From NCBI RefSeq assembly GCF_002854065.1, contig NZ_CP024147.1: a DNA stretch of 64,000 bases; one strand, 5' to 3'. A model generated the notes under the pieces. That model saw nothing but the letters and a program-made list of their open reading frames with translations. It did no database searches and was not told where the DNA came from. Positions 16,736-33,808 of the stretch are shown one piece after another; position 1 is the first letter of the stretch, and every line of letters begins with the position of its first letter. Source of the DNA: Escherichia coli (GTDB lineage: Bacteria; Pseudomonadota; Gammaproteobacteria; Enterobacterales; Enterobacteriaceae). The position numbers were made by a program, and so were the translations under genes.

Positions 16736-19081
16736 TTATTTCAGATTCTTTCTAATTATTTTCCCCGAGCAATTACGTGGCAGATCTTTTCTGATCTCCA
16801 GATAAGAGGGCACTTTAAATTTCGCCATATTTTGTTCGCAGAAGCGAAAAAATTCCTCTTCGCTCAATGTTTCACCTTCATTCAGCACCACAAATGCTTT
16901 GATGGCTTCATCGCGAATCGAATCTTTAATACCCACAACCACGATGTCCTGAATTTTCGGATGGGTGGCGATGATATTTTCCAGCTCCACGCAGGAGACA
17001 TTCTCGCCACCGCGGGTGATGCTGCCAACTTACTGATTTAGTGTATGATGGTGTTTTTGAGGTGCTCCAGTGGCTTCTGTTTCTATCAGCTGTCCCTCCT
17101 GTTCAGCTACTGACGGGGTGGTGCGTAACGGCAAAAGCACTGCCGGACATCAGCGCTATCTCTGCTCTCACTGCCGTAAAACATGGCAACTGCAGTTCAC
17201 TTACACCGCTTCTCAACCCGGTACGCACCAGAAAATCATTGATATGGCCATGAATGGCGTTGGATGCCGGGCAACCGCCCGCATTATGGGCGTTGGCCTC
17301 AACACGATTTTCCGCCATTTAAAAAACTCAGGCCGCAGTCGGTAACCTCGCGCATACAGCCGGGCAGTGACGTCATCGTCTGCGCGGAAATGGACGAACA
17401 GTGGGGATACGTCGGGGCTAAATCGCGCCAGCGCTGGCTGTTTTACGCGTATGACAGGCTCCGGAAGACGGTTGTTGCGCACGTATTCGGTGAACGCACT
17501 ATGGCGACGCTGGGGCGTCTTATGAGCCTGCTGTCACCCTTTGACGTGGTGATATGGATGACGGATGGCTGGCCGCTGTATGAATCCCGCCTGAAGGGAA
17601 AGCTGCACGTAATCAGCAAGCGATATACGCAGCGAATTGAGCGGCATAACCTGAATCTGAGGCAGCACCTGGCACGGCTGGGACGGAAGTCGCTGTCGTT
17701 CTCAAAATCGGTGGAGCTGCATGACAAAGTCATCGGGCATTATCTGAACATAAAACACTATCAATAAGTTGGAGTCATTACCGCCACCGCGTTTGATCAT
17801 ATTGCAGCGGCGATCGACGACATAAAAAAAGCCTTCTTCGTCGCGGTATCCGGTATCGCCGGTATGCAGCCAGCCATCAGCTTCCAGCACTTTTGCAGTG
17901 GCTTTCGGGTTGAGAAAATACTCTTTGAAGATGGTTTTCCCTGGTACGCCTTTAATACAGATTTCACCGATCTCACCTGCCGGGAGCGGGCGATTGTGAT
18001 CGTCGCGGATCTCCGCTTCGTAGCAAAACCCCGCCCGACCAATCGACGGCCAGCGTCGTTTATCGCCAGGGCGATCGCCGATAATGCCCACAATGGTTTC
18101 CGTCATCCCATAAGACGTCAGCAAGCGAACGCCGAAGCGTTCACAAAACGCATCTTTTTCCTGCTCCGACAAGTTGAGATAAAACATCACTTCCCGCAGG
18201 CGGTGTTGCCGATCGTTCGCTGAAGGCGGCTGCACCATCAACGTACGAATCATCATCGGAATACATTCGGTAACGGTGGCGCGGTACTTCTGCACCTGTC
18301 CCCAGAAGGCGCGGGCGCTGTATTTCTCGACCAGCACAAAGGTGGCCCCGGCAGAAAACGCCGCCATCGCCGCAGTACACTGGCAATCGATATGAAACGC
18401 AGGCATTACCGTCAGGTAGACGTCATCGTCACGCAGTGCACACTGCCAGGCGGAGTAATATCCAGCGAAGCGCAGGTTGTAATGGGTAATCACCACACCT
18501 TTCGGTCGGGAGGTGGTGCCGGAGGTGAAGAGAATTTCCGCCGTATCGTCAGTCGATAGCGGCGGTGCATAGCACAAGGTGGCAGGTTGTTGATTTTTCA
18601 GTTGAGTAAACGAACTCACGCCATCATCAGCGGGAAGTGCCACATCTGTCAGGCAAATGTGCCGCAACTGAGTGGCATCTTCCTGCTGAATCTGTTGATA
18701 CATAGGATAAAATTGCGCACTGGTCACCAGCAGGCAAGCCTGGCTATTTTGCAAGATCCACGCGCTTTCCTCGCGCAACAGGCGGGCGTTAATCGGCACC
18801 ATAATCGCGCCAATTTTTGCCAGCCCGAACCAGCAAAAGATAAATTCCGGGCAGTTGTCGAGATGTAGTGCAACCTTGTCGCCTTTGCGAATCCCCAGCG
18901 TATAAAACAGGTTTGCCGTGCGGTTAATCTCCTGATTTAACTCAAGATAACTATACCGGTTAACGACTCCGCCGCTGGATTCACAAATCAGCGCCGTTTT
19001 ATGACCGTAAACGTCCGCCAGATCGTCCCACATTTGACGTAGATGTTGTCCGCCAATGATATCCATTGCACCTCTATCCAT
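16736..19081 (-). pseudogene. caiC: caiC (crotonobetaine/carnitine-CoA ligase) interrupted by IS1
   Basis: C-terminal 84-aa fragment (16736-16990) and N-terminal 459-aa ORF (17702-19081, reading into IS1) are split by an IS1 at 17015-17782. Removing IS1 plus one 9-bp duplication restores a ~522-codon adenylate-forming enzyme. Confidence 0.9.
17015..17782 (+). mobile_element. IS1 insertion sequence, 768 bp, copy 1, inside caiC
   Basis: Ends GGTGATGCTGCCAACTTACTGAT... and ...AATAAGTTGGAGTCATTACC; insA 17070-17345 and insB frame 17264-17767 with the A-run frameshift site between them; flanked by 9-bp direct repeat GCCACCGCG (17006-17014 and 17783-17791). Confidence 0.95.
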
Positions 19082-21658: not shown

Positions 21659-23953
<2,295 letters not shown>

Positions 23954-29801: not shown

Positions 29802-32327
<2,526 letters not shown>

Positions 32328-32412
32328 TTTTGTATATTAGAATTCCGGCATCACTGATACGTGCAGATATCCGTGTATACTAGACGTATAAATTGTACAG
32401 GAGCACGATATC

Positions 32413-32646
32413 ATGACTGCAAAACGTACCACACAAAGTGTGACCGTCACCGTCGACCGTGAGTTAGTCAATCGCGCTCGTGATGCAGGCTTAAATATGA
32501 GCGCCACCCTTACGGTTGCGCTCAATGCTGAACTTAAAAAACATGCAGCAACACGTTGGCGTGAAGAGAACGCAGAAGCTATCGCTGCGTTAAATCAATT
32601 GGCTGATGAAACCGGATGTTTCTCTGATGAGTACCGGAGCTTCTAG
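32413..32646 (+). CDS. ccdA: CcdA-family antitoxin (chromosomal ccd)
   Basis: 77-aa ORF resembling plasmid F CcdA in its ..TVTVD.. N-terminal and ..RWREENAEAIAALNQ..ADE..F C-terminal segments; 2-bp gap to ccdB. Confidence 0.8.
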   Translation: MTAKRTTQSVTVTVDRELVNRARDAGLNMSATLTVALNAELKKHAATRWREENAEAIAALNQLADETGCFSDEYRSF

Positions 32647-32648
32647 CG

Positions 32649-32963
32649 ATGCAATTTACGGTATACCGCAGTCGCAGCAGGAACGCCGCGTTTCCCTTTG
32701 TTATCGATGTTACCAGCGACATTATTGGTGTGATTAATCGCCGTATTGTTATTCCATTAACACCTATTGAACGATTTATCCGTATTCGCCCACCAGAACG
32801 GCTTAACCCAATCCTTTTACTGGTAGACGGCAAAGAATATGTGCTCATGACGCATGAGACTGCAACTGTTCCAGTTAACGCGCTGGGAACGAAATTTTGC
32901 GATGCCAGCGCGCACCGAACGTTGATTAAAGGAGCATTAGATTTTATGCTCGACGGGATTTAA
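32649..32963 (+). CDS. ccdB: CcdB-family toxin (gyrase poison homologue)
   Basis: 104-aa [35 protein letters not shown].. resembling CcdB (MQFKVYTYK..FVDVQSDIID..RMVIPL..); the 3' end overlaps the convergent apaH stop by 4 bp. Confidence 0.8.
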
Positions 32964-33808
32964 GACGCGGCCGCCTCTCCCTCACCCATATCTTTATGCC
33001 GGTTCGACGGCTGGACAAAATACTGTTTATCTTCCCAGCGCAGGCAGGTTAATGACCCACCCCAGCAGCAGCCGGTATCCAGCGCGTAAATACCTTCCGG
33101 CGTACCTTTGCCTTCCAGCGATGCCCAGTGACCAAAGGCGATGCTGTATTCTTCAGCGACAGGGCCAGGAATCGCAAACCACGGTTTCAGTGGGGCAGGG
33201 GCTTCTTCCGGCGATTCTTTGCTGTACATATCCAGTTGGCCGTTTGGAAAGCAAAAACGCATACGGGTAAAGGCGTTGGTGATAAAACGCAATCTTCCCA
33301 GCCCCCGCAATTCCGGTGACCAGTTATTTGGCATATCGCCGTACATAGCGTCGAGAAAGAAGGGATAGGAGTCACTCGACAGCACCGCTTCTACATCGCG
33401 CGCGCACTCTTTGGCGGTCTGCAGATCCCACTGCGGCGTGATCCCTGCGTGGGCCATCACCAGCTTTTTCTCTTCGTCGATTTGCAGCAGAGGCTGGCGC
33501 CGCAGCCAGTTAAGCAGCTCGTCGGCATCCGGCGCTTCCAGCAGCGGTGTCAGGCGATCTTTCGGTTTATTGCGGCTGATCCCGGCAAATACCGCCAGCA
33601 GATGCAGATCGTGATTGCCCAGCACCAGACGTACGCTGTCGCCTAAGGATTTCACATAGCGCAGAACATCCAGCGAACCCGGGCCGCGCGCGACCAGATC
33701 GCCTGTCAGCCAGAGGGTATCTTTCCCAGGGGTAAATTCTACTTTATGCAGCAATGCGATCAGTTCATCGTAACAACCATGAACGTCGCCAATAAGGTAT
33801 GTCGCCAT
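32960..33808 (-). CDS. apaH: Bis(5'-nucleosyl)-tetraphosphatase (symmetrical)
   Basis: 282-aa ORF with N-terminal GDVHGC metallophosphatase motif. Confidence 0.93.

Follow-up and report, generated by a model that had tools for sequence, protein, structure and literature searches.

A common and intact form of the ccdO157 toxin-antitoxin islet between folA and apaH on an Escherichia coli chromosome

How does a gene pair resembling the toxin-antitoxin system of plasmid F come to lie between folA and apaH on an Escherichia coli chromosome, and is its toxin still intact? We addressed this question in a 64,000-nucleotide stretch of E. coli contig NZ_CP024147.1 (RefSeq assembly GCF_002854065.1), called the window below, in which a 636-bp segment (positions 32328-32963) carries a short leader, the antitoxin gene ccdA and the toxin gene ccdB. 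The segment is an intact, common allele of the known chromosomal ccdO157 islet (Wilbaux 2007; Mine 2009), and in this sense it is already known and ordinary. The literature describes ccdO157 as a genomic islet located between folA and apaH in O157:H7 and absent from K-12, where a 77-bp spacer is found instead, in agreement with a first description of this DNA made without database searches (hereafter the sequence-only reading), which stated that chromosomal ccd is reported at this site in some E. coli lineages and is a strain marker. We consider it very probable that the allele works through the canonical type II toxin-antitoxin mechanism, being autoregulated and weakly expressed.

Identity and layout of the ccdAB pair

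The upstream core-gene flank, folA, encodes dihydrofolate reductase (31848..32327, plus strand) and is followed by the 85-bp leader (32328..32412, plus strand), which contains a candidate promoter and operator. The ccdA gene (32413-32646, plus strand) encodes an antitoxin of 77 amino acids and is separated by an intergenic gap of 2 bp (32647-32648) from ccdB (32649-32963, plus strand), which encodes an intact toxin of 104 amino acids. On the opposite strand, apaH (32960-33808; 282 amino acids) converges on ccdB and shares 4 bp with it (32960-32963), its stop codon (32960-32962) overlapping the last sense codon and the stop codon of ccdB. These assignments come from the list of open reading frames, joined by the annotation of a collinear O145:H28 genome for folA and apaH, by Pfam and BLASTP for ccdA, and by Pfam and a structure model for ccdB. 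The coordinates bear out the sequence-only reading, which had seen two small open reading frames 2 bp apart and the end of ccdB lying 4 bp inside the 3' end of the convergent apaH. A Shine-Dalgarno sequence, AGGAG (32399..32403, plus strand), can be read 9 nt upstream of the ccdA ATG, and the ATG of ccdB is preceded at the same distance by a GGAG within the 3' end of ccdA (32636..32639, plus strand). Together with the 2-bp gap, this internal GGAG suggests that ccdA and ccdB are translationally coupled. Antisense open reading frames of 62 and 89 amino acids over ccdA and ccdB were taken as chance frames. A 6-bp difference that lies within apaH, close to its 3' end and beside the islet junction (32960-33000), makes ApaH 282 amino acids long here, compared to 280 in K-12.

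Similarity to CcdA and CcdB, on which the sequence-only reading depended, is highly significant for both proteins. CcdA residues 8-77 align onto positions 2-71 of the 71-position Pfam model PF07362 (E=1.5e-26), and CcdB residues 2-103 onto positions 1-101 of the 101-position model PF01845 (E=5.5e-31), so both matches are full length. Among proteins of solved structure, CcdB resembles Vibrio fischeri CcdB (E=1.2e-16) and F CcdB (E=2.8e-11) in sequence, and CcdA resembles F CcdA (E=9e-6). In BLASTP alignments with their F plasmid counterparts, CcdA is 30% and CcdB 36% identical, and the claimed likeness to the plasmid F pair is upheld by all these comparisons. The gene order is also that of the CcdA/CcdB type II family, the antitoxin gene being followed directly by the toxin gene in the same orientation. 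The structure that AlphaFold predicts for CcdB (predicted local distance difference test, 87; predicted template modeling score, 0.80) has a beta-barrel and a C-terminal helix, like the solved gyrase-bound CcdB. Its closest folds in the PDB are V. fischeri CcdB with GyrA14 (4ELZ; template modeling [TM] score, 0.86) and F CcdB with GyrA14 (1X75; TM score, 0.83), and the 16 top matches are all CcdB, with MazF far behind at E values of about 6e-4 or worse. The NCBIfam cut-offs for F-type equivalogs (NF010264 and NF010262) are missed by both proteins, CcdA scoring 38.6 against 100 bits and CcdB 61.2 against 147 bits. Judged by these scores, CcdA and CcdB are members of the family and not F-type equivalogs.

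The relation to known systems follows the same gradation. O157:H7 strain Sakai has the pair at the same folA-apaH site, with the same gene lengths, the same 2-bp gap and the same 4-bp overlap with apaH. The alignment proposed by the sequence-only reading, against the F and O157:H7 proteins, gives significant similarity to the former, while in Sakai CcdA (ECs_0052) is identical and CcdB (ECs_0053) is identical at 103 of 104 residues, with Ser44 as the single difference. Sakai departs from the 636-bp segment at 2 nucleotides, one of which is synonymous in ccdA (32574). O145:H28 and other strains carry the 636-bp sequence without any change, and typical O157:H7 does not. The ccdAB pair of plasmid F (CcdA, 72 amino acids; CcdB, 101 amino acids) has the same family, fold and gene order but is plasmid-borne, whereas the locus here is chromosomal. 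The N-terminal CcdA strand, QSVTVTV, has its counterpart in QRITVTV at the beginning of F CcdA, and the C-terminal toxin-binding tail, RW..EN...G.FSDEYRSF, shares the motif RW..EN...G.F.DE.R with F CcdA; CcdB ends in FMLDGI and shares its terminal G-I with F CcdB. Among the differences, Asn69 of F CcdA corresponds to Tyr74 here and Trp99 of F CcdB to Asp102. A review connects the Asn69/Tyr74 position with the inability of the chromosomal CcdA to neutralize F CcdB. The best-scoring solved relative by both sequence and fold is the chromosomal CcdB of V. fischeri (PDB 3JSC, 4ELY and 4ELZ), which is about 35-37% identical and lies in another genomic context.

Boundaries, origin and distribution of the islet

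Alignment with K-12 MG1655, whose folA-apaH spacer of 77 bp lacks ccd genes, delimits the foreign segment. On the left, sequence shared with K-12 reaches TAATTTTGTATA plus a short GAATT, and on the right it starts again at TTTAAGACGC (32959-32968), such that the ccdB stop codon falls inside the shared part. The left junction is fuzzy (32337-32349), and the right one lies between 32958 and 32959. From these junctions, about 614 bp (approximately 32345..32958) take the place of the core of the K-12 spacer, a palindromic stretch described in the literature as a repetitive extragenic palindromic (REP) sequence. The sequence-only reading had spoken of an insertion between folA and apaH, at a site occupied in K-12 by a short spacer alone; the site and the short spacer are as it said, but compared with K-12 the event is a replacement and not a pure insertion. 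The folA-apaH region is reported to be plastic, with REP in about half of isolates. Another state of this plastic spacer is seen in strain 2017-02-2CC (L004, 541-1271), where the ccd genes are replaced and only the last 71 bp of ccdB remain beside apaH; the replacing gene is annotated as an "IS1096 element passenger TnpR family protein."

Composition and the distribution of relatives speak to where the islet came from. Its G+C content is 47% (38% in the leader), compared to 53-56% in the flanking folA, apaH and kefC genes, and this low value is consistent with a foreign origin. Moreover, the islet is absent from K-12, and the same module, a CcdA of 77 or 78 amino acids and a CcdB of 104 amino acids, is found in unrelated contexts in Klebsiella aerogenes, Enterobacter and Dickeya. 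These relatives in Dickeya, other Enterobacterales and plasmids of Hafnia and Klebsiella belong to the same 104-residue CcdB subfamily, with a C terminus of the form F(L/M)xDGI and the 2-bp gap, while their CcdB identity is 55-73% and their flanking genes are unrelated to those here. The plasmid copies reach 73% CcdB identity in Hafnia alvei (NZ_CP015380) and 70% in K. aerogenes (NZ_CP139388), and the Hafnia plasmid CcdA is 66% identical, with the same 12 C-terminal residues. F-type ccdB is carried by about 4,500 plasmids, whereas no genuine plasmid with a close O157-type ccd was found in the plasmid collection. A close plasmid source of the islet was rejected, since the lone match above 90% identity in that collection, a record of 834 kb, has apaH on it as well and is, therefore, chromosomal DNA. 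The islet is best viewed as a largely selfish element, gained by horizontal transfer, that also serves as a lineage marker.

Escherichia albertii carries ccdAB at the same folA-apaH site (window positions 32413-32963 corresponding to L005, 1765-2315). Synonymous divergence between the window and E. albertii is about 0.11 in both ccdA and ccdB, compared to 0.26 in folA and 0.31 in apaH. A value less than half that of the flanks suggests that the islet moved between E. coli and E. albertii after their split, and by this measure it looks either younger than the species split or exchanged between the two species. In the same comparison, the ratio of nonsynonymous to synonymous differences per site (pN/pS) is 0.10 for ccdA and 0.52 for ccdB, and on these values ccdB is under relaxed constraint.

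A census of 5,426 complete E. coli genomes places this allele in its population. The 636-bp segment is present in 2,024 of them (37%), always as a single chromosomal copy and never on a plasmid, so its presence in some lineages only, as the sequence-only reading had it, is confirmed. All 40 of the matches listed are 100% identical to the 636-bp segment and derive mainly from O145:H28, and proteins identical to this CcdB and to this CcdA each occur on at least 1,000 contigs. By allele-specific 40-mers, the Ile44 codon of the present ccdB occurs in 357 genomes (70 with the exact local haplotype of the window) and the Ser44 codon in 1,618. Junction-specific searches count three lesions of ccdB: a 13-bp deletion first seen here in strain GPEC657 (259 genomes), a +1T frameshift as in MS20673 (134 genomes), and a stop at Gly95 as in U15A, which removes the tip of the C-terminal helix (413 genomes). 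If these three classes do not overlap, ccdB is dead in at least about 806 of the 2,024 carriers (approximately 40%). When six further E. coli alleles were compared, the CcdA protein was identical in five, the exception being GPEC657 with T47I, and it is unchanged even in MS20673 and U15A, where ccdB is dead. Reviews describe ccdO157 as degenerating in E. coli, and an "active antitoxin/inactive toxin" class has been described for the islet. Our census, made on a much larger set of genomes, is consistent with this published picture of decay. The locus is useful for marking E. coli lineages, by its presence or absence and by its allele, and illustrates in textbook fashion how a chromosomal toxin-antitoxin module decays once it has been acquired horizontally, but it matters little beyond annotation.

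Leader, toxin residues and possible roles of the pair

We infer from the leader a sigma-70-like promoter (32354..32381, plus strand) that matches the consensus at 9 of 12 positions, with a -35 element CTGATA (32354-32359), a 16-nt spacer and a -10 element TATACT (32376-32381). This consensus match draws its support from its position and from its overlap with a conserved leader block, not from its score. Over the predicted -10 lies a 15-bp imperfect dyad, CGTGTATACTAGACG (32372-32386), which is a candidate operator for CcdA or CcdAB and aligns with CGTGTAAGTTACACA of the Hafnia plasmid and CGTGTAATATACACG of Dickeya. The leaders of the homologues in E. albertii, the Hafnia plasmid, K. aerogenes, Enterobacter and Dickeya have a CGTGTA-N-ACAC/G block and a GGAG in common; as an inverted repeat, the block is clear in Hafnia and Dickeya and imperfect here. 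On this pattern, an operator overlapping the -10 is plausible. The sequence-only reading had noted short palindromes, naming GTATAC, as consistent with an operator autoregulated by CcdAB. This perfect palindrome does occur once in the leader (32375-32380), where it overlaps the predicted -10, and the F leader has one as well, 33 bp upstream of the ccdA start compared to 38 bp here; but GTATAC as an operator of the whole subfamily was rejected, for the hexamer is limited to Escherichia and only the looser CGTGTA...ACAC/G block is common to other genera. The -10/GTATAC element is intact in this copy, whereas in 399 carrier genomes (approximately 20%) a single change, A32377T, abolishes the palindrome and alters the second position of the -10 as well.

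Several smaller observations concern the same region. The leader contains the further 6-bp palindromes GAATTC, GATATC and TGTACA. Six GTATAC sites are present in the window, two of them in the islet, and the second of these lies inside the 5' end of ccdB (32661-32666), where it may be an internal CcdA site. An 11-nt direct repeat is also found in the leader, with copies TGTATATTAGA (32331-32341) and TGTATACTAGA (32374-32384) 43 bp apart. The left junction with the DNA homologous to K-12 falls within the first copy and the GTATAC/-10 element within the second, and only 8 of the 11 positions match in E. albertii. This repeat could be a second operator site, an integration microhomology or a product of chance. 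A terminator scan found no terminator-like site between the folA stop and ccdA or between ccdB and apaH, and read-through into and out of the islet is therefore possible. Two terminator-like sites inside ccdB (32680 and 32726) are weak and intragenic, compare with 0.9 in shuffled sequences, and were taken as chance.

In the mechanism that we favor for this allele, a weak sigma-70 promoter in the leader would drive a bicistronic ccdA-ccdB mRNA, to which read-through from folA may add, and the two cistrons would be coupled in translation through the 2-bp gap and the internal GGAG. CcdA would bind CcdB through its C-terminal tail and neutralize it and, alone or with CcdB, would also bind the dyad over the -10 and repress the operon. 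If CcdA, a reported Lon substrate, were depleted, free CcdB would bind the dimerization domain of GyrA and trap gyrase in the cleavage complex. Much of this agrees with what reviews report for ccdO157: the O157:H7 toxin poisons gyrase, with an affinity fivefold lower than that of F CcdB; CcdA-O157 is degraded by Lon; and toxicity and expression are both lower for the chromosomal version than for the F system. According to the same reviews, ccdO157 does not cause post-segregational killing or stabilize plasmids, and its toxin is neutralized by F CcdA, whereas CcdA-O157 does not neutralize F CcdB.

The toxin itself is intact. The ccdB gene has no frameshift, stop or deletion and none of the three common lesions, inactivating changes being among the things that the sequence-only reading had kept in view. 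Every invariant or near-invariant column of the 104-residue subfamily is retained in this CcdB. Residue 44 is Ile (codon ATC, 32778-32780), compared to Ser (AGC) in O157:H7 Sakai, and in the AlphaFold model it sits at the start of a long loop after the strand formed by residues 31-39. This column is variable in the subfamily (I, S, G or P; Ser in E. albertii), and so nothing suggests that S44I inactivates the toxin. The converse idea, that Ile44 restores a family-consensus hydrophobic residue (Leu42 in F, Leu in V. fischeri) and makes the toxin more toxic than the Ser44 form, was rejected on the same variability and on the Ser of E. albertii. Near the C terminus, where gyrase contacts were to be checked, the conserved Gly103 and Ile104 are kept, and with them the D-G-I end, but the equivalent of F Trp99 is Asp102. 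One paper remarked on the Asp at this position and left its effect open. Asp is near-invariant at this position in the 104-residue subfamily, and V. fischeri CcdB, with Thr there instead of Trp or Asp, still binds GyrA14 in solved complexes; Trp99 is therefore not a family-defining residue. The sequence-only reading was correct to caution that the activity of CcdB cannot be told from sequence, although the question is narrowed by an intact frame and a difference of one loop residue from the O157:H7 toxin. From this one-residue similarity to the tested O157:H7 allele, we infer that the Ile44 toxin would be toxic as well.

Some of our observations weigh against an intact, canonically working module. 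The promoter is the sole match in 32200-33100, compared to an average of 1.2 in shuffled sequences, and taken alone does not exceed chance, and GTATAC is not conserved in the leaders of homologues from genera other than Escherichia. Asp102 occupies the position of a Trp reported as crucial for the toxicity of F CcdB. Finally, the dead ccdB of about 40% of carriers implies that intactness comes without strong selective upkeep. This last point, together with the relaxed constraint on ccdB, the degeneration described in reviews and the S44I difference from the tested O157:H7 toxin, is what would be expected of a decayed module of the "active antitoxin/inactive toxin" class, in which the antitoxin is functional and the present CcdB is inactive or strongly attenuated despite its intact frame. 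We think this unlikely for the allele in hand, because its ccdB lacks any lesion, its residue 44 falls in a variable loop, its near-invariant residues are all kept, and the exact protein is common. Somewhat less improbable, and compatible with the canonical mechanism rather than exclusive of it, is a role in stress tolerance or persistence, in which regulated release of an attenuated CcdB would transiently inhibit gyrase and raise survival of antibiotics or heat. Reviews citing Gupta et al. 2017 credit ccdAB-O157 with a contribution to drug tolerance and persister formation, and ccdB-1 at the folA-apaH locus is reported to be upregulated by bile salts in an adherent-invasive E. coli strain. 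However, the frequent loss of ccdB in natural isolates and its relaxed constraint argue against a strongly selected role, and nothing in the window bears on the question.

The contrast between a decaying toxin gene and an unchanged antitoxin also invites an anti-addiction reading, in which the pair, or at least ccdA, is kept to neutralize incoming plasmid CcdB and thereby shields the host from post-segregational killing. Such a function has been demonstrated for the related chromosomal ccd of Erwinia chrysanthemi (Dickeya), and it would fit the identity of CcdA across all but one of the alleles, those of MS20673 and U15A with dead ccdB included, the presence of the 104-residue subtype on Hafnia and Klebsiella plasmids, and the C-terminal tail that the Hafnia plasmid CcdA has in common with this one. 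However, the E. chrysanthemi antitoxin is reported to neutralize F CcdB and the O157 antitoxin is reported not to, and F-type ccd is by far the commonest plasmid ccd in E. coli; no E. coli plasmid in the collection has a close O157-type ccd; and the low diversity of ccdA in part reflects recent common ancestry, as synonymous differences are also 0-1. We therefore hold this reading to be very unlikely, and we would give as little credence to the narrower claim that CcdA-O157 is retained by selection against plasmid ccd of the 104-residue subtype, as found on Hafnia and Klebsiella plasmids. If true, such retention would explain why CcdA is unchanged in strains with frameshifted or truncated ccdB. 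Counter-selection vectors based on ccdB use F CcdB. As chromosomal CcdA is reported not to neutralize this toxin, the islet should not disturb them.

Other features of the window

Outside the ccd segment, the window is 97-99% identical to O145:H28 strain RM13514, compared to 100% for the 636-bp segment. Three complete 768-bp copies of insertion sequence IS1 are present at 17015-17782, 22935-23702 and 58916-59683, each flanked by a 9-bp target duplication (GCCACCGCG, GGTTCGTTA and AAACAGAGA, respectively). The O145:H28 genome, which is collinear in other respects, has none of them. With caiC interrupted by the first copy and caiT by the second, the carnitine operon is probably inactive; the third copy is intergenic, upstream of sgrR. 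The divergence outside the ccd segment and these extra IS1 copies led us to reject RM13514 as the source of the window, and the caiC::IS1 junction was not found in one piece in any of the 5,426 complete RefSeq E. coli genomes. Rfam models detect three expected E. coli features above their gathering thresholds: the SgrS small RNA (61494-61720, plus strand), a thiamine pyrophosphate riboswitch upstream of thiB (57851-57950, minus strand) and the ES003 small RNA upstream of carA (10017-10069, plus strand). Alignment to the annotated O145:H28 genome further places type III secretion effector genes in the window, with an espX1 islet cut by the window start (approximately 1-830), an espY1 islet whose espY1-like open reading frame has 226 amino acids (41075-41755), and an espY2 pseudogene region (approximately 58200-58800).

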